Shown: in pieces, positions 1 through 39,179 of the stretch
Layout of the letters: each line of letters starts with the position of its first letter
Position numbering within the stretch: position 1 is the stretch's first letter
From: a virus
Direction: 5' to 3' (one strand)
IMG/VR virus record: IMGVR_UViG_3300029479_000010
DNA: 39,179 bases
Notes under the pieces: generated by a model
What the model saw: only the letters and a program-made list of their open reading frames with translations
Database searches by the model: none
What the model was told of the DNA's origin: nothing
Translations under genes and position numbers: made by a program

Positions 1-110
1 AACAATATGTTCATCAATGTACTTATTGTTTCCTAAATGTCCCTAAATGTCCCTAAATGTCCCTAAATGTCCCTAAATGTCCCTAAATGTCCCTAAATGT
101 CCCTAAATGT
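1..110. repeat. Direct terminal repeat, left copy. Bases 1..99 are identical to 39081..39179. It contains tcctaaatgt followed by 7 copies of ccctaaatgt (31..110).
   Basis: Exact identity of the first 99 nt with the last 99 nt of the window. The 10-bp tandem unit was counted directly. Confidence 0.9.
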
Positions 111-200
111 ACAAAAAAAAGAGACATAAAGAGCGATAAAGACACACAAAGAGAGCAGACATAAAGAAACAAAAAGAGACAATAAGTAAGTTATTTTATA
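111..200. repeat. Purine-rich degenerate ~10-11-bp repeats (gacataaagag-like, 4-5 units) just inside the left terminal repeat
   Basis: Units seen directly: gacataaagag, cgataaagaca, cagacataaagaa, aaagagacaataag. They are related to the right-end gggacaataag unit. Confidence 0.6.
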
Positions 201-240
201 CTTATTGTCAACCTTAATGTCCCTGAAGGTGTACATATTG

Positions 241-510
241 TTACTTATCGTCACAATTAGACGTGTAATAGTTATTAGTCGTTGTCACGTTATTGCTATT
301 ACGATTATGTCTATTGCTATGTATCTTGATTGTGTCTTGCTCATTGACCAGAAACTCATGCAGTAATGCTCTTAATAGTGACGAGCTATCATAATCATTA
401 ATATCGCAATAGCTCTGAAATGCCGCTTTTTCGGCAGGTGTTAATCGTACTGTCAATGTTGCGGTACGCTTTTCCGCCCGTGCTTGTTCTTTGATTTTTG
501 CAGTATCCAT
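241..510 (-). CDS. Ribbon-helix-helix (Arc/MetJ/CopG-like) DNA-binding protein, candidate transcriptional regulator
   Basis: 89-aa minus-strand ORF. N-terminal TLTVRLTPAEKAAFQSYC fits the beta-strand/helix-A pattern of RHH repressors. The ATG at 510 is preceded on the minus strand by AAGGA. It is transcribed divergently from the early region. Confidence 0.7.
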   Translation of the reverse strand: MDTAKIKEQARAEKRTATLTVRLTPAEKAAFQSYCDINDYDSSSLLRALLHEFLVNEQDTIKIHSNRHNRNSNNVTTTNNYYTSNCDDK

Positions 511-576
511 CGTATTTTTCCTTTCTTATAAATAAAAACTATACCGTCATATAAAAATCAATAATTAGACAATGTG

Positions 577-760
577 TGACATCATGTGATACAGTGTAGT
601 CAGCAAAACGTAACACGGTACATTGATAACCACAGAGCCAATTATGTATGACAGTATAGTTACGCATGTATTATAACATGTCATACATAAGGCTGCAAGG
701 GCCGCTATAAATAGTGACAGTATCTATAGTGCTTGCAGTAATCGTCAGCATGGGGGCGTC
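577..760 (+). promoter_or_regulatory. Early (host RNAP) promoter region. The best sigma70-like candidate has -35 TGACAG at 649..654, a 17-bp spacer, and -10 TATAAC at 672..677. Related TGACAGTAT elements also occur at ~714 and ~590.
   Basis: Motifs and spacing read directly. The position matches the T7 A1-A3 early promoters upstream of the first early gene. A 9-bp inverted repeat tgtatgaca/tgtcataca (~644..688) brackets the best candidate. Confidence 0.4.
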
Positions 761-878
761 AGACGCATGCTAAAAGTTGCAATGATTTATGCAACAGCGT
801 GAGGCAACAACACGGCTAATTAATAACGTTGCACACATTAAGACAATTAATTATAATACAGGTATAAGGAGGCAAAAA

Positions 879-1160
879 ATGAGAAAAATTATTAACGGAA
901 AAGCTTATGATACAAGTACCGCAACATTGATTGGTACCTGGAGTAATGTGGAAAATGGTCGTGATTTTTATTATATTGAGAAACGTCTATATTTTAAGCC
1001 ACGTAAAAAGGAATATTTTTTGTTTTTAGACGGGGGTGCCGCTACAATATACGAAAAACCTATAATTAAGCCGTTATCAGTAGAGCAAGCACGGACGTGG
1101 GCATATAATAACTTAGACGCAGATGAAGCAGAGAAGGCCTTTGGGCGTGTGGCTGAATAA
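879..1160 (+). CDS. Early hypothetical protein (93 aa)
   Basis: ORF with ATG at 879 and SD AAGGAGG at 866..872 (6-nt spacer). The annotated 789 start lacks an RBS. Confidence 0.7.
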   Translation: MRKIINGKAYDTSTATLIGTWSNVENGRDFYYIEKRLYFKPRKKEYFLFLDGGAATIYEKPIIKPLSVEQARTWAYNNLDADEAEKAFGRVAE

Positions 1161-1177
1161 TAATAATAAGTAAAGAG

Positions 1178-1217
1178 AGAGACTGTAAAAGAAAAACTAC
1201 AGTCTCTTTTTTTTTTA
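1178..1217 (+). terminator. Rho-independent terminator-like hairpin: 10-bp stem agagactgta/ctacagtctc followed by a T9 run
   Basis: Stem-loop and T tract read directly, immediately after the stop of the 879..1160 gene. Confidence 0.65.
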
Positions 1218-1239
1218 TTACAAAATTAGGAGGGAAAAA

Positions 1240-1452
1240 ATGAAAAGAAAATACTATGCGGAACATTGCTTATATGGTGTCAATACAAGTTATGACAGTT
1301 TTAATCGTCATGCATATTCATTTTTCGTTTTTGACAGCAAAAAAGAAAGAGACGAATGGGTAGACAGAAATGCTTACGACCCGTACGGAAAATTGGTTGC
1401 AGCGGCAACAACGTTAAAAACGTTCGGTACTGCATGGGGCGAAATTTTATAG
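1240..1452 (+). CDS. Early hypothetical protein (70 aa)
   Basis: ORF preceded by AGGAGGG SD (1228..1234). Confidence 0.65.
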   Translation: MKRKYYAEHCLYGVNTSYDSFNRHAYSFFVFDSKKERDEWVDRNAYDPYGKLVAAATTLKTFGTAWGEIL

Positions 1453-1513
1453 TGCACGGTAACATTATCGTACACAGTGTTGACGATTTATATAAATAAA
1501 GGGGTGAAAAAAA

Positions 1514-1708
1514 ATGAAAATTCTAAAACTTTATAGGCAAGATTTCTCACCAGAGACTGTAAAAGAAAAACTACAGTCTCTTTTAAATTGTGCCGATTGG
1601 GACTTTATCGAAACTACATCGGCATTTGGTAACACAAGACGTATCAGCAGAGTACAACTTGCGCTGCTACTAAAAAAGAATTGCCGTATACACAATACAG
1701 TTTATTAA
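1514..1708 (+). CDS. Early hypothetical protein (64 aa). Its coding sequence contains a second copy of the 31-bp terminator hairpin.
   Basis: ORF with a weak GGGGTG SD. The repeat gagactgtaaaagaaaaactacagtctctttt lies at 1552..1584 inside it. Confidence 0.45.
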   Translation: MKILKLYRQDFSPETVKEKLQSLLNCADWDFIETTSAFGNTRRISRVQLALLLKKNCRIHNTVY

Positions 1709-1727
1709 GAGATGGAGGAAAAATAAA

Positions 1728-2072
1728 ATGTTTAGAGTTGAAAATATTGAAAGCCCGCGGTCAGGACGTCCCGTTGCTAATCAATTTGAAATAATTGTGG
1801 ATACTATAGTAGGTCGTGTTATCTTGTTTCAATCTTATAGCACACCAATTGCAATGTTAATAAAATGTCCAATACTCAGCACAGCTTATTATATTGCTAC
1901 AGATGAAAAATATTCTGTGACAACATCAAAATATCAAAAGATATTTTATGAAAAGCATGGAAACTATCTTGTTCATCAGTACAATGTGTCTAATTTTAAA
2001 GAATGGTTGGATGCCCTAAATAATCCAGCCTTTTTTAATGCTTTATTGTTACAAGAAAGGGAAAGAAAATGA
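1728..2072 (+). CDS. Early hypothetical protein (114 aa)
   Basis: ORF with GGAGG SD at 1714..1718. It overlaps the next gene by ATGA. Confidence 0.7.
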   Translation: MFRVENIESPRSGRPVANQFEIIVDTIVGRVILFQSYSTPIAMLIKCPILSTAYYIATDEKYSVTTSKYQKIFYEKHGNYLVHQYNVSNFKEWLDALNNPAFFNALLLQERERK

Positions 2073-2734
2073 AAATAAAGACAATTACACTATATAGCTT
2101 TTCGGAATTATCAGAACAAGCACAAAATAGGGTGGCACATAAATATCAAGACGTCATGCAAGATATCTATGAGGAAAAGGCCAATGATATTTTAGAGCAA
2201 AAAGCCGCTTATTGGACAAAAAGAACAGGAATACCTATTGACAAAGAAAATATATCTTATTCGGGCTTTTATACACAAGGGGACGGCCTAAGTTTTATTA
2301 CAGACGATGAAATAGATATGTCTATTCTTGTCCCTTATGCCCTCAAACAGCTTGAAAGGGGTACAAGAATAAGCAGAAAGGTATTAGAAATATCGCCAGA
2401 AGTATTGAATAAACTTTATGATTTATATTCTTTTTACATCTGCCGTTATCAAGGTGACCGTTATGCCCACAGTGGGACGGTATATTGTCATTGGGAATGC
2501 AATAGCATTGATAGCGTTTGTACAACCAGCGAATGGGATAAATATGATGTTTTAGCAGAAGAAGTGGCCGCCCTTGTTAATTATGTGAAAAATTTAATAT
2601 GTGCAGATATTTATCAAGCATTGCAAGATGAAAATGACTATATCTCTGACACAGAGCACATAAAAGAGTATTTCAAAGAATGTGATTTTTATGATTGGTA
2701 TGAAGACGGAACAATGTATATAGAAAGGAAGTAA
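2069..2734 (+). CDS. Early hypothetical protein (221 aa), acidic C-terminal half. Function unknown; candidate host-takeover or anti-defence protein.
   Basis: ORF with start coupled to the upstream gene. No motif recognised. Confidence 0.7.
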   Translation: MKIKTITLYSFSELSEQAQNRVAHKYQDVMQDIYEEKANDILEQKAAYWTKRTGIPIDKENISYSGFYTQGDGLSFITDDEIDMSILVPYALKQLERGTRISRKVLEISPEVLNKLYDLYSFYICRYQGDRYAHSGTVYCHWECNSIDSVCTTSEWDKYDVLAEEVAALVNYVKNLICADIYQALQDENDYISDTEHIKEYFKECDFYDWYEDGTMYIERK

Positions 2735-2739
2735 GAAAA

Positions 2740-3147
2740 ATGGAACTTATTGATTTATTAAGAGAGGGCACAATTCGTACAGGGCACAATCATAACTTTT
2801 TAGTACACATGCAGTTTACAAATGAAAATTACATTGCAGACACAATCGAGGAAGCAATACAAGTAGCAAATATGACAAAAGAACAGCAAGAAACGTTATC
2901 TGCTTATTTAGACGTATTCAAGGAGGTAAAAGATAAAACAGTTATTGCCGATATCTACAATGACCACATGTTTTTAACAGGAGATACAGACATGACAGAA
3001 TATGCAAAAGAGTGGCTGGCATATCACCTTCTAAATGATACCTATGAGGTTGTTGAAAACTATATGGACTTCAAGTCCTTAGGTGCGGCCTTTTATGCCG
3101 ATGGATGCTACATAAAGACACCTAAAGGCATCATTGAGCGTCTATAA
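2740..3147 (+). CDS. Early hypothetical protein (135 aa)
   Basis: ORF with AAAGGAAG SD at 2724..2730. Confidence 0.7.
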   Translation: MELIDLLREGTIRTGHNHNFLVHMQFTNENYIADTIEEAIQVANMTKEQQETLSAYLDVFKEVKDKTVIADIYNDHMFLTGDTDMTEYAKEWLAYHLLNDTYEVVENYMDFKSLGAAFYADGCYIKTPKGIIERL

Positions 3148-3424
3148 AATGTACCCACGCAAGATATATAAAAATGGGCTTGTAATTACTAAGGCACAGT
3201 TAGATAAAAACTACTGTGCTTTTTTAATTGCAGAAGTGCTACATGGGGCCACATGCTACTTAATGTTTCATAATAACACACTCTATGTCCTTGAACGCCC
3301 TTCAGGCACCTACATTACCCTTACAGACACCAAACCACCACATAGACAATTTCATATTTTCGTTGAAGACACTAGAGCTATTGAGAGTGCCTTACGCAAA
3401 GCCAGTTTCATTATATGCAAGTAG
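3134..3424 (+). CDS. Early hypothetical protein (96 aa from TTG 3134; alternative ATG at 3149)
   Basis: ORF. TTG 3134 follows an AAAGG SD. ATG 3149 lies 2 nt after the upstream stop. Confidence 0.5.
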   Translation: MSVYKMYPRKIYKNGLVITKAQLDKNYCAFLIAEVLHGATCYLMFHNNTLYVLERPSGTYITLTDTKPPHRQFHIFVEDTRAIESALRKASFIICK

Positions 3425-3451
3425 CTATTTTATTTCCTGGAGGTAAACAAC

Positions 3452-3577
3452 ATGTTCCCAATTGATAGAGACACCTTAGAAACATACATCGCCATAGGTA
3501 TGTTTCATGGGCTGTGTCTTGCTGTGTCTTTATTCATAGCATGGCTTTTATTTTGGATAATCGGAGGTTGCAAGTGA
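3452..3577 (+). CDS. 41-aa hydrophobic peptide (single predicted TM helix), translationally coupled to the RNAP gene
   Basis: ATG 3452 with GGAGG at 3439..3443 (8-nt spacer). Its TGA stop at 3575..3577 overlaps the RNAP ATG. Too short for the ORF track. Confidence 0.45.
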   Translation: MFPIDRDTLETYIAIGMFHGLCLAVSLFIAWLLFWIIGGCK

Positions 3578-6135
3578 TGAAAGATCTGGAACAAAGTCCG
3601 TTGTTTTTAGAAGAGCTTGAAATAGAGTACCAGTTTAAGCACCAAGCAGAAGAACAGCTTAAAAAGCATCTACAAGAGAAGACACGAGCAGGCAAGGCCA
3701 TAGAGACACCAATAGGCCGTGGCTTAATTGAATACCTTTATGATAACTTAGCGACTAACATTGAGGCATTCTTAAAGTATCAAGAAGAGCCAAAAGGAGG
3801 CGTTAAGGCTGCATACTATCCATTGGTCATGTGGTTGCTGGATATCTATAAAGACAATAGACAAGATTTAATTACCCTTTTGTCTTTAGCTACAATCACA
3901 GAAGCCGTCAATGCGGCACACACAACATTATCACTATCAAGCACCTGTCAGAATATACAGCAAGACGTCTTAGAAGAAGCACAGCTACAAGCTTTTTTAC
4001 AGGAGAACAAAGAAAAAGAGCTAAATACTTTGGTAGGGCTGTCAAGACGAAAAAGTAATTTTTATAGGCGTTATTTTATAAAAAATGTCATGAACCAGAC
4101 AGACTGGAAAGAAAAGCAATGGCCACTAAAAGAAACGGTGCTTTTTGGTGCAAAGCTATTAGAAATATGCATGCAAGGAACTGATTTATTTACCACTCAC
4201 TACAGGGTAAACTTTAGGGGCAAGGGCGTCGAGTGCATCGAGCCTACAGATGCTTTTCATAAGATATGGAACTCAAACACTTATTATTTATTATCAAGAG
4301 CCTATCAATCTTGTCCAATGATTATGACACCAGTACCATGGAAATCAGATTTAACAGGGGGCTATTGTGGCGAATTAAATGCTATTCATGGCTTTATTCG
4401 TACAGAGCGCTACCATACACAAGATAGACAAAACAATTTCTTTTTTAAGCAATATAAAGAGCAAGTAAAAGCCGCTGATTTAAGTAATGTCTTAAATGCT
4501 GTAAATAGCATTCAACAGACACCATGGATTATTAACTCTAAGGTGTTGCGGGTAGCAGAGCAGCTTGTTAATCAGGGGGGAGACATAGCAGGATTACCAC
4601 AGATGGAGCCCTTTTCAAAGCTACCAACGCTTGAAAACCCATCACAGGAAGAGTTAAAAAGACACAAGAAAGCAGCCAAACTTTTATACGAGAAAGAAGC
4701 CAGCAGGCGTGGAAAAGCCCTAAGAGTGCACATCAATTTACGCACAGCGCAGCGTTTTGAACAGTACGACAGGGTTTATTTTCCTCATAACATTGATTTT
4801 CGAGGGCGTATCTACCCAATACCGTCTTTTAGTCCACAGGGCGATGAACTGAATAAAGGATTACTGCTATTTGCAGAACCAGAACCACTGGAAAATGATG
4901 AAGACATCCAGTGGTTTTTTATTGCAGGTGCTGAATTTGCAGGAATAGACAAGGTGTCTTTTTCTGATTGTGTCTCTTGGGTAGAAGACAATAAAAGCAA
5001 CATTTTGGACACTGCTGCCCAACCATTAGACATGGTGGACTGGTGGGCTAACTTAGATGCCCCTTTTGAGTTTTTAGCGTGGTGTTTTGAATACCAGAAG
5101 CTCCAGAAGTACCTTGAAGAGCATAATGGTCACGCTAAAGGTTTCGTAACAGGCATACCGATTGCCTTTGATGGGACATGCAGTGGCTTACAGCACTTTT
5201 CTGCTATTTTAAGAGACCCTATTGGAGCCAAAGAGGTCAATTTAGCCCCTGGAGATAAACCAAATGACATCTATCAAACCGTAGCAAATAAAGTTAATGT
5301 TGTCTTACGGCAGGATGCCCAGACAGGCACGGGAGACACCACGGATGAAAAAACACAACAGATACGGTATGGCACCAAAACATTGGCACAAGGCTGGCTG
5401 TCTTTTAGAGTTACCAGAAAGGTAACAAAAAGACCCGTTATGACTCTTGCTTATGGTGCTAAACAGTTTGGTTTCAGAGACCAAATACTGGAAGACACAA
5501 TTATTTCTCATATAGGTGAGGGGCTATTTACGGCTGATAATGCTAACCAATATGCAGGATACATGGCCAAGCTTATTTGGAAAGCAGTACAAACCACGGT
5601 TGTTAAGGCTGTAGAAGGTATGGAATGGTTACAACAGGTGGCACGTATGGTCACTAAGAACGGTGAGGTCATACAGTGGACAACACCTATGGGCTTTATT
5701 GTTCAACAACCATACATGGTTTACAACGTTAAAACATACCAGATGAGGTTTTTACACATCACAAAACGTTTTTACGATATAGAAGTCACAGGTACAGTGG
5801 ATAGACGCAAGCAGTCACAAGCAATTGCACCCAATTTTATTCACAGTATGGATGCCAGCCATCTACAGATGACTGTAAACAGAGCAGCAGAAGCAAAAAT
5901 AACTAACTTTGCAATGATACACGACAGCTATGGTACAACCCTTGCAAAAGCGGGTTTACTGTTCCGTCTAATTCGAGAGTGCTTTGTAGAAATGTATACA
6001 ACCAATGATGTTTTAACAGCGTTTGAAAGAGACCTAAGCCCATTTATAGTGGGTAATCAAAAACTACCACCACAACCGACCAAAGATACTTTTGATATCA
6101 ATCAGGTAAAAGAAAGTTTATATGCTTTTCATTAA
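3577..6135 (+). CDS. Single-subunit DNA-directed RNA polymerase (T7 gene 1 homologue)
   Basis: 852 aa (T7 RNAP is 883). Contains DGTCSGLQH and HDSYGT motifs. ATG 3577 has GGAGG at 3563..3567. The track's 3514 GTG start lacks an RBS. Confidence 0.95.
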   Translation: MKDLEQSPLFLEELEIEYQFKHQAEEQLKKHLQEKTRAGKAIETPIGRGLIEYLYDNLATNIEAFLKYQEEPKGGVKAAYYPLVMWLLDIYKDNRQDLITLLSLATITEAVNAAHTTLSLSSTCQNIQQDVLEEAQLQAFLQENKEKELNTLVGLSRRKSNFYRRYFIKNVMNQTDWKEKQWPLKETVLFGAKLLEICMQGTDLFTTHYRVNFRGKGVECIEPTDAFHKIWNSNTYYLLSRAYQSCPMIMTPVPWKSDLTGGYCGELNAIHGFIRTERYHTQDRQNNFFFKQYKEQVKAADLSNVLNAVNSIQQTPWIINSKVLRVAEQLVNQGGDIAGLPQMEPFSKLPTLENPSQEELKRHKKAAKLLYEKEASRRGKALRVHINLRTAQRFEQYDRVYFPHNIDFRGRIYPIPSFSPQGDELNKGLLLFAEPEPLENDEDIQWFFIAGAEFAGIDKVSFSDCVSWVEDNKSNILDTAAQPLDMVDWWANLDAPFEFLAWCFEYQKLQKYLEEHNGHAKGFVTGIPIAFDGTCSGLQHFSAILRDPIGAKEVNLAPGDKPNDIYQTVANKVNVVLRQDAQTGTGDTTDEKTQQIRYGTKTLAQGWLSFRVTRKVTKRPVMTLAYGAKQFGFRDQILEDTIISHIGEGLFTADNANQYAGYMAKLIWKAVQTTVVKAVEGMEWLQQVARMVTKNGEVIQWTTPMGFIVQQPYMVYNVKTYQMRFLHITKRFYDIEVTGTVDRRKQSQAIAPNFIHSMDASHLQMTVNRAAEAKITNFAMIHDSYGTTLAKAGLLFRLIRECFVEMYTTNDVLTAFERDLSPFIVGNQKLPPQPTKDTFDINQVKESLYAFH

Positions 6136-6418: not shown

Positions 6419-6462
6419 ATGCCACAATAACTTTTGAAGAAGAAGAAAAGAAAGAAAGATAA

Positions 6463-6554
6463 TTTGCAATTCATTCCTAAATATAGAGGTGATTGTCGCA
6501 CTTATATACAAAGTGGTGATTGTCGCACTTATTAGAAGAAAGAGAAAGAAAAAC
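6463..6554 (+). promoter_or_regulatory. Repeated ~92-bp module, copy A. It holds two tandem phage-RNAP promoter-like sequences: ggtgattgtcgcacttatata (6488..6508) and ggtgattgtcgcacttattagaagaaaga (6515..6543), followed by a purine tract.
   Basis: Near-identical module at 36270..36363. The third promoter copy is at 6757..6784. GCACTTATTAGAAGA resembles SP6/T7-class promoters (CACTATAGAAGA). The position matches T7 phi1.1A/phi1.1B. Confidence 0.6.
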
Positions 6555-6756
6555 ATAATGGAACATAAAGGTACATAATGTAACAATAAGGATACTAAAT
6601 GTTTCACTAAGTGTTTATTATTATTGTTTAACTAAATGTATAACTTATATGTTTAACAATTAATTACCTATATGTAACCTATATGATACATAAATGTAGC
6701 AGGTGCTTTGTGTCTTTAAAAACAAAACACAGCATGTTGTGCACACACCTAAAATT

Positions 6757-10202: not shown

Positions 10203-11821
10203 GAAAAATCGGTGAAATCATTAAAGCACATCTTCCTTGTCCCGATTGTGGGAGTCATGATGCTTTAGCCCTTTATGATGATGGGCACACTTATTGTTAT
10301 TCGTGTCATGCAACACACCATGAAACACAACCTAAAGAAAAGGGTGCTATGTATGACATAGAAGACTGGCCAATTGTTCCATTAAAAAAGCGGGGAATTA
10401 CCGAAAAGACATGCAGGTTATATTCGTATAAAGCAGGATTGCATAATGGACAACCCGTTCAGATAGCTTGTTATTTTAATGATAATGGTGTCTGTGTAGG
10501 GCAGAAGGTAAGGTATCCAGATAAGAAATTTACTACGCTGGGGAAGATAAGTAATCGTTTCTTTGGACAGCATTTATGGCCAGGAGGCGGGGGAAAAAAG
10601 CTGGTAGTGACAGAAGGTGAGATTGATTGCCTTACTGTGTCACAGCTGAATGGCAATAAGTATCCCGTTGTATCTATTCCTAATGGCGTCTCCTCTGCTA
10701 AGCGTGTCTTTAAAGAGAACATGGATTGGCTTAATTCCTTTGAACAGGTTATTGTCATGTTTGATATGGATGAACCAGGGCGAAAGGCCGTAAAGGATGT
10801 TGAGGGGCTCTTACAGCCTAATAAACTTTATGTAGCCACACTGCCCCTTAAAGATCCTAATGAGTGCCTTCTGGCTGGCAGAGGACAAGAAGTTATCAAA
10901 GCTATCTGGAATGCCAAAAAGTACACCCCAGACGGCATTGTGAATGGTGCCGACCTGTGGGAAGAAGTAAGTAAGCAGGAAGACACAGAACAGGGCTTTA
11001 TGTTTCCTTGGGACATCCCGCTGAATAAGATGACCTGTGGCTTGAGAAAAGGCGAATTAACTGTCTTAACAGCGGGAACAGGTGTAGGCAAAACAACGTT
11101 CGTGAGACAAGTTGCTTACGATTTGGGTGTCACAAAGGACCTTAAGGTAGGCTTATTGATGCTTGAAGAGAACGTGAAGCGCACCGCCCGTGGCTTGATG
11201 TCTATTGCAGCATCTAAGCGGTTATATATGAATAGGCAGGGTGTCTCTGAAGAAGAGTACAAGCAGGCCTTTGATAAGACATTGGGGACTGGACACTTTA
11301 TTCTATACGAGCATTTTGGGTCTTTAGATGGTGATAACCTGTTAAGCAAGATACGCTATATGGCTGTGGGAGAGCAGTGTGATTTTATTATTCTTGACCA
11401 CATCTCTATTGCTGTGTCTGGTTTGGAAGGCGACAATGAGCGAAAGCTTATTGACATCTTGATGACACAGTTACGTTCTTTAGCCGAAGAGACGGGAGTA
11501 GGTCTGATTGTAATTTCGCACCTGAAGCGTATTGAGGGTATGTCACATGAAGAGGGGGCGGCTACTTCTCTTTCACAGTTGCGGGGGTCTGGAGCTATTG
11601 CACAGCTGTCCGATACAGTCATTGGCTTAGAGAGAAATCAGCAGGCAGACGGGAAACAAAGAAATAGGGTTCGTATTCGTGTCTTAAAAAACCGCTGGAC
11701 AGGAGAGACAGGTATTGCGGGTTATCTCTTTTATAACAAGACTACAGACCACCTGGAAGAAACCAAACCCCTATCAGTAGAAGAAAGAGAGGAGGCAGAA
11801 GAGGATGATAGTCCTTTTTGA
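10199..11821 (+). CDS. DNA primase/helicase (T7 gp4 homologue)
   Basis: 540 aa. Zinc ribbon CPDCGS...CYSCH, TOPRIM region, Walker A GTGVGKTT, and a C-terminal acidic tail ending F. GTG start. An internal Met at 10349 (MYDIEDWP) may give a 4B-like helicase-only form. Confidence 0.92.
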   Translation: MRKIGEIIKAHLPCPDCGSHDALALYDDGHTYCYSCHATHHETQPKEKGAMYDIEDWPIVPLKKRGITEKTCRLYSYKAGLHNGQPVQIACYFNDNGVCVGQKVRYPDKKFTTLGKISNRFFGQHLWPGGGGKKLVVTEGEIDCLTVSQLNGNKYPVVSIPNGVSSAKRVFKENMDWLNSFEQVIVMFDMDEPGRKAVKDVEGLLQPNKLYVATLPLKDPNECLLAGRGQEVIKAIWNAKKYTPDGIVNGADLWEEVSKQEDTEQGFMFPWDIPLNKMTCGLRKGELTVLTAGTGVGKTTFVRQVAYDLGVTKDLKVGLLMLEENVKRTARGLMSIAASKRLYMNRQGVSEEEYKQAFDKTLGTGHFILYEHFGSLDGDNLLSKIRYMAVGEQCDFIILDHISIAVSGLEGDNERKLIDILMTQLRSLAEETGVGLIVISHLKRIEGMSHEEGAATSLSQLRGSGAIAQLSDTVIGLERNQQADGKQRNRVRIRVLKNRWTGETGIAGYLFYNKTTDHLEETKPLSVEEREEAEEDDSPF

Positions 11822-16025: not shown

Positions 16026-16322
16026 ATGGGTAGCGTAGGTAAAGCAATTGGAAAATTAGTAAAGCACGCTGTACGGGGTGTAGGTAAGGTTGTTGGTGGC
16101 GTTACTGGTGGTCTGTTTGGTAGACAGAAACAGCCAGATATTAATGTAGAACAGCCAGCACAGGCAGCCGCACCCGCAGCACAGGAAAGTGGTCAGACAG
16201 ATGTCAACATTGACACAGCGGCCGATAAAAAGAAAAGAAAAGCAAAGGGCAAGAAAGGTCTGATGATCAATGCAGGCGCCAATGCTTCTGGTGGTACTAC
16301 AGGGACAGGACTGAATATCTAA
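16026..16322 (+). CDS. gp7.3-like tail/adsorption protein
   Basis: 98 aa. Lys/Gly-rich N-terminus, KKKRKAKGKK stretch, and ends GLNI (T7 gp7.3 ends GGGINI). Confidence 0.75.
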   Translation: MGSVGKAIGKLVKHAVRGVGKVVGGVTGGLFGRQKQPDINVEQPAQAAAPAAQESGQTDVNIDTAADKKKRKAKGKKGLMINAGANASGGTTGTGLNI

Positions 16323-17857
16323 TGGCAGAGACACAACGGACAGAAACAGCAAAAGCTCTTTATGAGCGCTTAGTGTCTGAAAGGTCTCCATATGTAACCA
16401 GGGCGGAAGAGTGTGCAAAGTATACGATACCCTCATTGTTTCCTAAAACGGGAGCAGGGGCGTCTACAACGTTTGACACACCGTACCAGTCTGTAGGGGC
16501 ACGGGGGGTAAATAATTTAGCGTCAAAACTGATGTTAGCCTTATTTCCTCCTAATGCCCCTTTTTTTAGGTTGTCTCCAGGTCAGGAAGCACAAAAAGAC
16601 CTGGAAGCAAAACCTGAATTAAAGACACGGGTAGAACAGGTGCTAATGCAAAAGGAGCATCAGCTGGCAGACTATGGAGAGACACATCAGTACAGGGTGA
16701 CCCTTGCTGAAGCCATAAAGGTACTTATTGTTACAGGCAATGACCTTTTGTTCCTTCCGCCAAAAGAAGAAGGAATGAAGCTGTATAAGTTAAATTCTTA
16801 TGTGGTACAGCGTGATGCCTTAGGGAATGTTATTCAGCTTGTTACTTTAGATAAGATAGCCTATGCCGCCCTCCCAGATGACATTCAGTCCTTGGTGGAC
16901 GGAAAGGGGCAGACAAAAAAGCCAGAAGATATCATTGAGGTTTACACACATGTTTACCGTGAAGATGATAAATTTTTGTCTTATCAGGAAGTAGATGGGC
17001 AGACAGTTCCAGGTTCAGAGCAGTCTTTTCCATTATTAAAGACCCCTTGGATACCACTGCGCATGGTAAAGGTAGATGGGGAGTCTTATGGGCGGTCTTT
17101 CGTGGAAGAGTATTTAGGGGACTTGAAGTCTCTTGAGGGGCTTTCTAAGGCCATTGTGGAGACAGCAGCCATTGCGGCGAATGTCTTGTTCTTGGTAAAC
17201 CCTAACGGGATTACAAGGCCATATAAACTGTCTAAGGCACAGAGCGGTGAATTTGTACCAGGCAGAAAAGAAGACATTCATGCTCTACAGCTGGAGAAAT
17301 ATGCAGATTTGCAGGTAGTTAATGCTACCATCCAGAATATTGAGTCAAGATTGTCTTATGCCTTTATGCTAAATAGTGCCGTGCAGCGAAACGGGGAGCG
17401 TGTAACTGCCGAAGAAATTCGATATGTAGCATCTGAATTGGAAGACACCCTTGGTGGTGTCTATTCTATTTTGTCTCAAGAGCTCCAGCTGCCTTTGGTA
17501 AGGCGCATGCTGGCACAGCTGGCTGCAACAGGACAGATGCCTGATTTACCAGAAGACCTGGTAGAACCCACGATTACTACAGGGTTAGAAGCCCTTGGAC
17601 GTGGACACGATTTAAATAAGCTGACAACATTTATGCAGCTGATTGCCCAGAACCCCGAACAGGCAAAAGCCATTAAGTGGAATGAAATGACCCTTATGGA
17701 AGCTAATGCGCTTGGTTTGGATGTATCTGGTTTAGTCAAGACTGAAGAAGAAATGCAGCAGGAATTACAACAACAGCAGATGGCCGAGATGGCTACAAGA
17801 GCAGCCCCACAGATGGCACAGGGGGCAATGAATAATGCACAAGGAGGTAACGTATAA
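16322..17857 (+). CDS. Portal (head-tail connector) protein (T7 gp8 homologue)
   Basis: 511 aa. Long colinear identity to T7 gp8, e.g. LNSAVQRNGERVTAEEIRYVASELEDTLGGVYSILSQELQLPLVR. Confidence 0.95.
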   Translation: MAETQRTETAKALYERLVSERSPYVTRAEECAKYTIPSLFPKTGAGASTTFDTPYQSVGARGVNNLASKLMLALFPPNAPFFRLSPGQEAQKDLEAKPELKTRVEQVLMQKEHQLADYGETHQYRVTLAEAIKVLIVTGNDLLFLPPKEEGMKLYKLNSYVVQRDALGNVIQLVTLDKIAYAALPDDIQSLVDGKGQTKKPEDIIEVYTHVYREDDKFLSYQEVDGQTVPGSEQSFPLLKTPWIPLRMVKVDGESYGRSFVEEYLGDLKSLEGLSKAIVETAAIAANVLFLVNPNGITRPYKLSKAQSGEFVPGRKEDIHALQLEKYADLQVVNATIQNIESRLSYAFMLNSAVQRNGERVTAEEIRYVASELEDTLGGVYSILSQELQLPLVRRMLAQLAATGQMPDLPEDLVEPTITTGLEALGRGHDLNKLTTFMQLIAQNPEQAKAIKWNEMTLMEANALGLDVSGLVKTEEEMQQELQQQQMAEMATRAAPQMAQGAMNNAQGGNV

Positions 17858-36192: not shown

Positions 36193-36269
36193 AACGTTTT
36201 AAGAGCATAGGAAGAGTGGACTAATAATAAATAATAAAGACACTCTTTCTATTTGCTTTTCTTTTAGTA

Positions 36270-36363
36270 ATTTGCAATTCATTCCTAAATATAAAGGTGA
36301 TTGTCGCACTTATATACAAAGTGGTGATTGTCGCACTTATTAGAGAGAAGAGAAAGAAAAAAA
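36270..36363 (+). promoter_or_regulatory. Repeated ~92-bp module, copy B (phiOR-like position). Tandem phage promoter-like sequences at 36296..36316 and 36323..36351, then a purine tract.
   Basis: Three mismatches to 6463..6554. It is upstream of the two right-end + strand genes. Confidence 0.6.
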
Positions 36364-36485
36364 AAATCCAAACACGAGGGGGAAAGACAACACTTAGATA
36401 TACATATAAGTACATATATGTAACATTAAGGTACATTAAGATTCCTTTATGTAACAATATGTAACATTAAGGAGGCATATAAGTA

Positions 36486-37326: not shown

Positions 37327-37419
37327 CAATTGACACAAAATAGACACACGATACCCTGATTATTCAGCAAATATCGTATTTATTATTATTTTAAGCATTT
37401 TATTTTGATGTATTTAAGT

Positions 37420-37506: not shown

Positions 37507-38607
37507 TTATTTCTTGTTTATTAAATTGTTTATAAGGGAGGCAGCTTTTTTGTCTTCTTCCTGGACGGCATGGGTGTACCTATTGAGCGTTATAGAGACA
37601 TCACTGTGTCCTAAGCGGGCACTTACTGTCTTTGGATTGACACCTTTTGCTATTAACCAGGTGGCATTGGTGTGCCGTAAGTCATGAAAGCGCATATGGA
37701 GCCCTAATGACTCACTAAGGTGCTTAAAGGCTACAGAAATGGCTGTAGGGGCAAAATAAGATCCAATAGCATTCGGAAAGACAACAATATCATGCTTTTT
37801 ATAAGTGAGTAGTATTTTGATAGTTTGAGCATCTACTGCTATTGTTCTTTGTGCCTTCTGTGTCTTAGGTGTTTGTATAGAGGTGTCTGAAGCAATAGAG
37901 CGGTGGATAGTAATTGTATTATTGGCTGTGTCTATATCCGACCAGTGAAGACCTAAGACTTCACCACGTCTAAAGCCGCATTCTAAGCACAAGAGGATGA
38001 TAGGGTACCAGGGGATACCTGTATGTACCTTCATGTTCTTAACTGAATTTAGTAATAGCTGTGCTTCATTGATTGTTAAAGGTACTATTTCTTTTTGTCT
38101 TGTTTTTATATTTTCAGACAAAGATACAGGATTAGTAAAGATAAGCTCTTCTGCTATTGCTGTCTGAAATATCATACTTAGGACAGTCCGATAGACATTC
38201 GTAGTAGCACTGCTATAATTTTTATGTTGAATAAGAAAAGTATTTATATCTTTTGTCTTAATATCCTTCAGGGGTGTTTGATGAAAGAAGGGTATAAAAT
38301 GCTTATTTATATAATGAATGTAAGATTTATATGTTGTACTTTTTACTTTGCCTTCTTTGATTTCTAAGAAGTGATTACAGTAAATATTAAAAGGAGTCAT
38401 GCTATTAATGCTAAGGATACCTTTTTCTTTTTCATATTGGTATTGTTGCATTAGTTTGATGACTTCTCTTTTGTCTGTACCTGTGAAGGTTTTCCTGATA
38501 CGTTTTTGTGTCTGGGGGTCTTTACCGAGGTCTAAGAAGCCTCTATAGTGTCCCTTTTTGTACTCAATGATACTGCCTTCACCCTTTTGTCTTCGTTGAT
38601 GTTTCAT
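37507..38607 (-). CDS. int: Tyrosine-type site-specific recombinase/integrase
   Basis: C-terminal catalytic region ...RFHDLRHTNATWLIAKGVNPKTVSARLGHSDVSITLNRYTHAV (R..H-x-x-R...Y). ATG at 38607 with AAGGAG 6 nt upstream on the minus strand. The track's 38631 TTG start is less likely. Confidence 0.85.
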   Translation of the reverse strand: MKHQRRQKGEGSIIEYKKGHYRGFLDLGKDPQTQKRIRKTFTGTDKREVIKLMQQYQYEKEKGILSINSMTPFNIYCNHFLEIKEGKVKSTTYKSYIHYINKHFIPFFHQTPLKDIKTKDINTFLIQHKNYSSATTNVYRTVLSMIFQTAIAEELIFTNPVSLSENIKTRQKEIVPLTINEAQLLLNSVKNMKVHTGIPWYPIILLCLECGFRRGEVLGLHWSDIDTANNTITIHRSIASDTSIQTPKTQKAQRTIAVDAQTIKILLTYKKHDIVVFPNAIGSYFAPTAISVAFKHLSESLGLHMRFHDLRHTNATWLIAKGVNPKTVSARLGHSDVSITLNRYTHAVQEEDKKAASLINNLINKK

Positions 38608-38904
38608 TATGGTCTCCTTTAGGGGGCACAAAAATAAAAATATGTAAAAATTGTGAAATGTGGGTTAATGAATTACAAAATATAAAAATACCCCCATATG
38701 TCCCTAATTGTACCATATGTCCCATATAGTAATAATAAAGTAAATCTGATACATATAGGCCCTAATGTGCCCAAGGTGTGACTATAAAGAAACCATAAAC
38801 AATCTATAACGTTTTACATATACCTATAGGGGTATATGGTATACCTGGTGTAGCCCATAATTCCTCATTTTGTTTCCTTTTTGTCAGGATTTATGGGCGT
38901 AAAA

Positions 38905-39003
38905 GGGGACGTAAAGGGACAATAAGGGGACAATAAGGGGACAATAAGGGGACAATAAGGGGACAATAAGGGGACAATAAGGGGACAATAAGGGGACATA
39001 ATG
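38905..39003. repeat. Tandem array of the 11-bp unit gggacaataag: 7 perfect copies at 38916..38992 plus degenerate flanking units
   Basis: Counted directly. It is oriented inversely (GGGACA) to the TGTCCC core of the 10-bp terminal-repeat units. Confidence 0.85.
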
Positions 39004-39080: not shown

Positions 39081-39179
39081 AACAATATGTTCATCAATGT
39101 ACTTATTGTTTCCTAAATGTCCCTAAATGTCCCTAAATGTCCCTAAATGTCCCTAAATGTCCCTAAATGTCCCTAAATG
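39081..39179. repeat. Direct terminal repeat, right copy (identical to 1..99). The window ends within the 10-bp array.
   Basis: Exact match to the window start. Confidence 0.9.

Follow-up and report, generated by a model that had tools for sequence, protein, structure and literature searches.

A ribbon-helix-helix gene beside the integrase of a temperate T7-like phage of Dialister invisus: a candidate repressor of early transcription

For a long time T7-like phages were considered strictly lytic; today temperate ones are known, and their switches are still hypotheses built around MarR-like regulators. The 39,179-nt viral sequence IMGVR_UViG_3300029479_000010 of IMG/VR (the window, that is, the whole stretch analysed) raises the question of which protein keeps the early genes of such a phage silent. 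Near its left end, a minus-strand gene at 241-510 encodes a small ribbon-helix-helix (RHH) protein, RHH1, divergent from the early genes, and the region 511-878 upstream of it holds two palindromes, P1 and P2. In this study, we propose that RHH1 is a lysogeny or immunity repressor of early transcription by the host RNA polymerase (RNAP), with P1 as its likeliest operator and P2 as a second site, and put the probability of this reading at roughly 0.55. The phage is temperate and thus needs a repressor of early transcription, and RHH1 is favoured for this role because the gene order is kept in three clades, the regulator is exchanged as a cassette and no other regulator was recognisable.

A temperate phage with two leftward genes

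By its gene content the window is a complete T7-like podophage genome. A single-subunit RNAP gene (3514-6135) lies on the plus strand, as do all the T7-type replication, portal, tail and terminase genes. Bases 1-99 are identical to 39081-39179, and this 99-nt overlap at the window ends points to an assembly overlap within a tandem array, which makes the map circular or terminally redundant. Of the leftward genes only two are credible, that of RHH1 and, downstream of it and co-oriented with it, a tyrosine integrase gene (int; 37507-38631, minus strand; PHROG integrase, E 7e-75). The remaining minus-strand open reading frames (ORFs) of at least 100 aa sit within plus-strand genes, and the minus-strand ORF at 16056-16436 overlies tightly tiled small plus-strand ORFs, which agrees with the original prediction, made from the letters of the window, that RHH1 is the only minus-strand gene besides the integrase. 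Its further claim that the two genes are contiguous in a circular or concatemeric form is borne out by the same adjacency in an independent circularly permuted 39.2-kb assembly, a concatemer-like contig and prophages. The integrase is only ~30% identical to integrases of Firmicutes phages; tblastn of the RHH protein found no homologue among deposited phage genomes, and megablast of 1-4000 was likewise empty there.

Near-identical RHH genes occur on long contigs of metagenome-assembled genomes of Dialister invisus. On at least four independent contigs, host rpsO is followed by int and RHH, both leftward, and then by the rightward early genes and the RNAP gene, and the right-hand prophage junction faces an apparent pnp start (pnp judged by eye). 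The core TTAAGCAT of the phage attachment site (attP; 37391-37398) is common to the phage and both junctions, left (rpsO side) and right (pnp side), from which it follows that the phage integrates between rpsO and pnp; it is placed at ~12050-12070 in L006 and at ~1490-1500 in L149. The tyrosine integrase, the chromosomal insertion and the common attachment core demonstrate that the phage is temperate and integrating, and firmly tie this uncultivated phage group to D. invisus. In the rpsO-pnp intergenic region of D. invisus the prophage lies just past the rpsO terminator, and rpsO is thereby separated from pnp. Two scans of genome contigs, one for RHH relatives and one for an empty bacterial attachment site (attB), returned nothing.

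Five copies of TGATTGTCGCACTTAT(T/A), at 6489, 6516, 6757, 36297 and 36324, are likely promoters of the phage RNAP, judging from their sequence. No such copy lies in 511-878, so that the early operon should depend on host RNAP, and the divergence of RHH1 from a host-RNAP early region, as first proposed, is upheld. The ~100-nt blocks 6460-6559 and 36268-36367 are 94% identical.

The regulator protein and its exchangeable slot

The RHH1 gene codes for 89 aa from an ATG start, with an AAAGGA Shine-Dalgarno sequence 8 nt upstream, and the ratio of nonsynonymous to synonymous substitution rates (dN/dS) in its core is 0.068 (codons 1-57, 11 close relatives); it is a real gene under purifying selection. 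The protein matches Pfam RHH_9 with 27.4 bits (cut-off 23.4) and DUF6290 with 26.6 bits, just under the cut-off of 27, and its homologues also match RHH_1/CopG, RHH_10, RelB and NikA-like families. A family profile search of the PDB returned SvtR (2kel; E 0.0025, 52 aligned residues spanning the whole domain), a marginal similarity, and a PDB search with the single RHH1 sequence gave noise only. The AlphaFold2 (AF2) monomer has a core predicted local distance difference test score of 88-93 over residues 21-50, with an extended segment at 16-24 (TATLTVRLT), helix A at 25-38 and a second helix at 42-68, of which 42-~60 is assigned to helix B; the Asn/Thr-rich tail (residues ~58-89) is predicted to be disordered. 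Foldseek listed almost exclusively RHH proteins (ParG, CopA, AtaR, TacA, ParD, AmrZ, NikA, ORF56, Arc), with E-values that are not significant for so small a domain. By these profiles RHH1 belongs to the RHH (Arc/MetJ/CopG) superfamily, as originally predicted. R22 in the beta-strand, K28, F31, C35 and R47 in helix B are invariant across clades, and the T16/T18/T20/R22 alternation together with the invariant R22 is consistent with a homodimer whose antiparallel beta-ribbon would enter the major groove; RHH1 is predicted to bind DNA sequence-specifically and to act as a repressor. Its transcript probably ends at an intrinsic terminator at 160-209 (minus strand), where an 11-nt perfect inverted repeat forms an 11-bp hairpin (209->178; -23.3 kcal/mol, z -3.75, 0 of 200 shuffles) followed by the U-tract UCUUUUUGUUUCUUU; this terminator is kept in both RHH1- and RHH2'-type relatives.

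A profile search identified homologues of 61-63 aa, P0033 and P0040 (26-32% identity), which take up this position in other T7-like elements: an early operon that ends in the RNAP gene diverges from them, and an integrase stands ~570-610 nt on, beyond which come host genes or the phage right end. Three clades thus keep the order from RHH to integrase, divergent from the early genes and a T7-type RNAP gene. A full HMMER scan yielded seven matches only, one of them a spurious immunoglobulin (Ig)-repeat protein, and for P0028 and P0029 no relatives were found among viral contigs. Pfam, applied to 19 early or small ORFs, identified no further DNA-binding regulator, and neither RHH nor the early ORFs matched MarR or helix-turn-helix (HTH) families.

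Phages whose integrases are 97-99% identical were compared with regard to what the slot contains. RHH1 stands alone in the window, L001, L003, L005, L009, L056 and L059, the paralogue RHH2' stands alone in L022, L023, L141 and L131, RHH1 and RHH2 stand in tandem in L002, L006 and L122, and L004 has two complete modules in tandem. RHH1 and RHH2 share 52% identity over a 33-residue core. Every promoter-proximal regulator carries its own versions of the two palindromes P1 and P2 at fixed positions, the int-side DNA (terminator and arrays) is common to all regulator types, and in L059 the recombination breakpoint falls directly after P2. This pattern suggests that the regulator and its flanking palindromes are exchanged as a cassette, as in an immunity region, and is supportive rather than decisive, since simple linkage predicts the same correlation. 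The paralogue RHH2 (109 aa) lies 15 nt upstream of RHH1 in some relatives (L006 9656-9985; L004; P0020-P0023; P0036). The C-terminal tail of the RHH proteins is variable, swapped or, in the 61-63 aa homologues, missing; tails are shuffled between the paralogues, and one ending in KKTEKEEIIFDYDLT occurs on both RHH1-like and RHH2-like proteins.

The DNA between RHH and int contains tandem arrays of CCCTAAATGT (period 10), of a degenerate GAGACATAAA-like unit and of GGGGACAATAA (period 11), at 31-110 / 39111-39179, 111-190 and 38900-39000, together with dispersed lone copies of ATGTCCCTAA. They recall the short-repeat arrays beside the terminal repeats of T7. Because the window break falls inside one terminal array, its true length is uncertain. 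Among near-identical relatives, CCCTAAATGT is found in 1-13 copies and GGGGACAATAA in 0-7, regardless of regulator type, so that the terminal arrays, once suggested as targets of the RHH protein, are poor candidates and were dropped as operators.

Does RHH1 chiefly serve the integrase instead, as a directionality factor or int regulator (perhaps a dual one, like Apl/Cox), the early promoters being silenced otherwise? The order from RHH to int with a gap of ~550-700 nt is kept in all three clades, the regulator and integrase of LUZ100 are co-transcribed (PMC10134795), and Apl of phage 186 is both excisionase and switch regulator. However, the stable hairpin and U-tract directly after RHH make co-transcription with int not obligatory. 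The attP core lies on the far side of int, ~1.9 kb from RHH on the circular map, and no copies of P1, P2 or the 15-mer described below are found there. What is swapped with RHH is the promoter-side DNA, whereas the int-side DNA stays the same. Known excisionases, moreover, are mostly winged-helix rather than RHH proteins, and we therefore consider a role centred on the integrase doubtful.

It also seems improbable that RHH1 regulates lytic-cycle timing or superinfection immunity rather than maintaining lysogeny. SvtR, the closest solved relative, is a viral timing regulator and auto-repressor, and the presence of RHH1 beside RHH2 in L006-type phages would be sensible if extra repressors broaden immunity. 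On the other hand, phages with RHH1 only or RHH2' only have a single regulator in the slot and yet occur as prophages, the Pfam survey of early and small ORFs offers no other repressor candidate, and the leftward orientation beside int is the classic position of a lysogeny gene.

Facing promoters, candidate operators and the early leader

Promoters in 511-878 were sought with an E. coli-type consensus, a pattern match only in a phage whose host is a Negativicute. The predicted early (lytic) promoter, P_R, lies at 566-595 on the plus strand (TAGACA-18-TACAGT, TG-extended), with a predicted start at ~602. The predicted RHH (lysogenic) promoter, P_L, lies at 670-698 on the minus strand, with TTGCAG (698->693), a 17-nt spacer and TGtTATAAT (678->670), and would start at ~663; the scan of the window did not list it, as its -35 matches in only 3 of 6 positions, and it was read from the sequence, its extended -10 being perfect. 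P_R and P_L are thus predicted to stand face to face with starts ~60 bp apart. Scans of L006 and L023 returned exactly two sites each, homologous between the two phages: an early-direction site within P1 (TTTACA-17-TATCAT, 10/12, in L006; TACACA-17-TATCAT, 9/12, in L023) and a regulator-direction site within P2 (TTTACG-17-TATACT with TG, in both). The best early promoter had at first been placed within the inverted repeat that we call P2. The scan did not return that candidate, ATGACA-18-TATAAC, in which the T at position 6 is missing; its plus-strand matches were 566-595 and 830-857. The early promoter is better placed in the palindrome at 569-597, and the repeat encloses instead a conserved leftward extended -10, likely that of the RHH promoter. 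The second sigma-70-like site, at 830-857 on the plus strand (TGCACA-16-TATAAT, 10/12), stands directly before the first early gene, is specific to the first-gene cassette of the window and is missing in relatives with other first genes. A further candidate, GTGACA (714-719)-N17-AGTAAT, was ruled out as a conserved early promoter, as GUGACAG is the loop of an 18-bp covarying hairpin. No Cheo-type LexA box was seen by eye in 511-878.

The palindrome P1 (569-597) reads ACAATGTGTGACAT c ATGTGATACAGTGT, is symmetric at 11 of 14 positions and spans the -35 to the -10 of P_R. Two sub-sites resembling ATGT-N3-ACAT stand 12 bp apart within it. Equivalents were found in L006 (14 nt, 79%) and L023 (16 nt, 88%), and P1 owes its weight to this recurrence in three cassette types; it is, on sequence grounds, the best candidate for the RHH operator. 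The inverted repeat P2 (642-690) reads TTATGTATGACA ... TGTCATACATAA, with arms at 642-653 and 679-690 that lie 25 nt apart. The repeat of 9 bp originally noted at ~644..688 is therefore present, with perfect arms of 12 nt rather than 9. It is the longest perfect inverted repeat of the window (loop of at most 60 nt) and was reached by 1 of 1000 dinucleotide shuffles of 511-878. Its pairs show three one-sided changes, each leading to G.U on the plus strand, and a single compensatory one, counts that are not significant; P2 may be a second operator, a hairpin of the early leader RNA, or both.

Of the repeated TGACAGTAT elements originally noted in this region, two exact copies exist (649 and 715), that at 715 forming an RNA hairpin loop, with one-mismatch copies at 541 and 447 on the minus strand; genome-wide there are 19 one-mismatch matches against 10 +/- 3.3 expected. 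The first copy is part of a 15-mer, TATGACAGTATAGTT, at 647-661 on the plus strand, which overlaps the left arm of P2 and has a counterpart, TATGACGGTATAGTT, at 537-551 on the minus strand; these two are the sole matches to TATGACRGTATAGTT in the genome, even allowing two mismatches. In minus-strand RNA, 551-537 is complementary to 661-647, this pairing is present in all type-1 relatives, and its one-sided changes all give G.U on the minus strand. We propose that the RHH mRNA leader carries at its 5' end a 15-bp helix of these two segments, and such a terminal helix in an mRNA starting near 663 fits the predicted leftward promoter.

Several observations weigh against RHH1 as the lysogeny repressor. 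P_R, P_L and the operator role are predictions read from sequence, the promoter scan gave no more matches than in shuffled sequences (window, L006 and L023), and in the P0033 clade it did not recover the P_R/P_L pattern. P1 is the best palindrome with 14-nt arms in 511-878, yet 8% of shuffles match it, so that alone it is not significant. The centres of the P2 arms are 37 bp apart, an unusual distance for an RHH tetramer, and P2 may be an RNA hairpin only. L006-type phages have an intact RHH1 without the type-1 15-mers, one TATGTATGA half-site being retained. The co-inheritance of gene and flanks is, as said above, also expected from linkage. No mechanism of induction is apparent, as a cleavable domain is lacking and no antirepressor domain was recognisable in the early ORFs with Pfam or PHROGs.

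Downstream of P2, the early transcript appears strongly structured. The plus-strand RNA hairpin at 693-738 has 18 bp, a 3-nt bulge and the apical loop GUGACAG (714-720), which contains the second TGACAGTAT. Over 15 distinct sequences, 95.6% of its cells are paired, against 21-47% in slid controls, 10 of its 18 pairs show compensatory changes, and the loop is invariant; the helix 693-699/732-738 supersedes a local hairpin at 691-703. Three consecutive hairpins follow on the plus strand, HP1 (747-771), HP2 (776-795) and HP3 (796-817, with a bulged G815). Over 747-817, RNAalifold found 10 of 20 pairs compensatory, with G.U pairs only when the plus strand is read as RNA. The HP1 loop GGGGCGUCAGACG is invariant, and its stem occurs in seven sequence variants. 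By this covariation, 693-817 (possibly from 642) is a strongly covarying four-hairpin plus-strand leader RNA, apparently undescribed, of which P2 may be a fifth hairpin. Rfam over 1-1300 with E up to 10 returned no leader match, only four weak sub-threshold matches in 1100-1250, presumably by chance. Co-evolution of the leader stem with RHH was considered and dropped, because the RHH beta-strand is identical in the phages whose stems vary. In L004/L025 the leader is present in two copies, each behind its own regulator module.

Hairpins and stem-like repeats were noted in other clades too. L012-L015 (P0033 clade) have, ~200 nt upstream of where RHH starts, a look-alike hairpin with a stem of 9 bp and the loop GGGGACA; a second hairpin (z -3.45) comes next, and two ATAGTG(TG)ACA repeats lie upstream of the first. 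A covariance model of HP1-2 did not detect this GGGG-loop hairpin of the P0033 clade, the resemblance being one of inspection and fold only. In the P0040 clade (L016-L018, 6470-7005) a GC-rich intergenic region of 530-580 nt holds several stem-like inverted repeats unlike the leader of the window. A broad pattern scan of metagenomes gave mostly chance matches, of which only those with a complementary stem were retained. A strong intrinsic terminator (1178-1215, plus strand; z -4.61) follows the first early gene and stands between leader and RNAP gene; its 33-nt hairpin occurs twice with 100% identity, at 1178-1210 (intergenic) and at 1552-1584 within the ORF 1514-1708.

Might the palindromes and repeats of 511-878 be RNA structures only, in the early leader and the RHH 5' leader, with RHH1 acting at other sites? 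The covariation at 693-738 and 747-817 is strong, and the one-sided changes all give G.U, on the plus strand in P2 and on the minus strand in the 537-551/647-661 helix. P1, however, with a centre of 1 nt, would make a poor RNA hairpin and coincides with the promoter core in three cassette types, RNA and DNA roles may coexist, and the copy number of the terminal arrays is unrelated to the regulator type. We give this explanation little credence.

Proposed mechanism and relation to known switches

If RHH1 is the lysogeny repressor, RHH would be transcribed leftward from the extended -10 promoter P_L (698->670), ending at 209->160, and RHH dimers would bind P1 (569-597) between the -35 and -10 of the rightward host-RNAP promoter P_R (566-595). 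Shutting off P_R would close the sole route to the phage RNAP gene and so keep the middle and late genes off; as the promoters face each other, repression of P_R would also relieve interference on P_L, and P2, in the P_L spacer, could provide autoregulation. Transcripts escaping from P_R would carry the ~175-nt structured leader (642/693-817) and then meet the terminator at 1178-1215. A bolder extension, which we regard as unlikely, is that one RHH fold of ~60 residues is the sole exchangeable immunity repressor of a temperate T7-like clade of Negativicutes, with facing promoters, and that the leader is a novel cis-acting RNA such as a put-like processive antiterminator, through which only transcripts from the regulated promoter would be licensed past the early terminators to the RNAP gene. 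Repressor, opposed promoters and leader RNA would, if this were true, form an undescribed lysis-lysogeny switch in a family long held to be strictly lytic.

Such a module has close functional parallels. The temperate T7-like phages LUZ100, Pasto and HTVC019P have a lysogeny module of MarR-like regulator and integrase, as described in PMC10134795, which cites Boeckman et al. 2022, and the regulator has been proposed to silence the phage RNAP gene in lysogeny (PMC10134795). Here, likewise, a tyrosine integrase has a small, co-oriented regulator directly upstream of it, and the T7-like genome encodes a T7-type RNAP. The present module differs in its RHH rather than winged-helix MarR fold, in lying across the genome junction on the strand opposite the early genes, in the predicted terminator between regulator and int, in an RNAP gene without its own phage promoter in front, and in its Negativicute host. 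F55 of the Sulfolobus virus SSV1 is a ~6 kDa RHH lysogeny repressor which binds repeats at early promoters and at its own promoter (PMC5569661). It is likened here by fold and role, and belongs to an archaeal virus with archaeal promoters and the tandem-repeat operators ATAGATAG. By analogy, the RHH1 module would work like the MarR-integrase modules and F55, but it belongs to neither family. SvtR of the rudivirus SIRV1 is an RHH dimer that represses its own and other viral promoters (PMC5569661); although no other solved structure is closer by profile, it comes from an archaeal lytic virus, has other targets and is only marginally similar.

As for the arrangement of the promoters, in P2-like phages the lytic promoter and the lysogenic promoter stand face to face, with the immunity operator over the lytic one (PMC7498355), and heteroimmune relatives of P2 are near-identical phages with differing repressor and operator cassettes (PMC1904268). 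The locus would resemble the P2/186 switch, with its facing promoters 40-60 bp apart, in that the promoters predicted here face each other ~60 bp apart with a candidate operator over the lytic one; it differs in having an RHH repressor rather than a CI/C-type HTH protein, and no counterpart of Cox/Apl was found.

The original prediction had assigned to RHH1 the role of Arc/Mnt in P22. These proteins of the immI system of this Salmonella phage are also small RHH repressors at overlapping opposed promoters. Pant has its Arc operator between the -35 and the -10, and P1 is placed likewise within P_R. Arc and Mnt, however, act on an antirepressor gene instead of the primary early operon. Here the operon leads to the RNAP gene, and nothing like ant was recognised. 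The Pfam matches of RHH1 (E up to 10) include no Arc/Mnt family, and Arc ranked 29th in Foldseek with E 8.6, so that the MarR-integrase modules, F55 and the P2/186 switches are closer analogues.

RHH antitoxins (RelB, ParD, CopA, AtaR) share the DNA-binding fold with a disordered C-terminal tail; but that RHH1 is an orphan type II antitoxin is highly improbable, although 'MAG TPA: antitoxin' is the name of an nr record, a match to NCBIfam RelB_antitoxin reaches 19.5 bits (far under its cut-off of 50), DUF6290 matches weakly and Foldseek matches include ParD, AtaR and TacA, since no toxin gene stands beside RHH in ~20 loci (the sole same-strand neighbour being the paralogous RHH), PADLOC on the locus gave no match and the tail is not conserved.

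In the library that was searched, no paper was found joining ribbon-helix-helix, integrase and RNA polymerase in a T7-like phage. RHH1 as lysogeny repressor would mean that a gut Negativicutes lineage met the same need as the phages with MarR-like regulators by means of another, minimal fold for DNA binding, in the form of an immunity cassette that can be swapped. As a test bed the locus is compact and well bounded, with a single protein of 89 aa, a pair of palindromes and two opposed promoters, both predicted, within ~370 bp. It also brings to light a leader RNA of the early transcript that is unannotated and covaries strongly, the least expected item.

Some further observations concern the early region. 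The early gene set is mosaic among relatives, and the early ORF 2740-3147 (L006 6919-7350) has a weak match to ArdA (anti-restriction; Pfam E 0.0075, below cut-off). The metagenome contig SKET01017906.1 (L129) carries a clustered regularly interspaced short palindromic repeats (CRISPR) array of 32 repeats with the repeat ATTTCAATCCACGCACCTCGTGTGAGGTGCGAC. At least seven of its spacers match the phage with 0-4 mismatches, six of the seven in the early region, their targets being 738-771, 3089-3123, 10788-10822, 3532-3565, 3888-3921, 317-349 and 2818-2851. One spacer is an exact match to the leader hairpin HP1, and another resembles the CCCTAAATGT terminal array.

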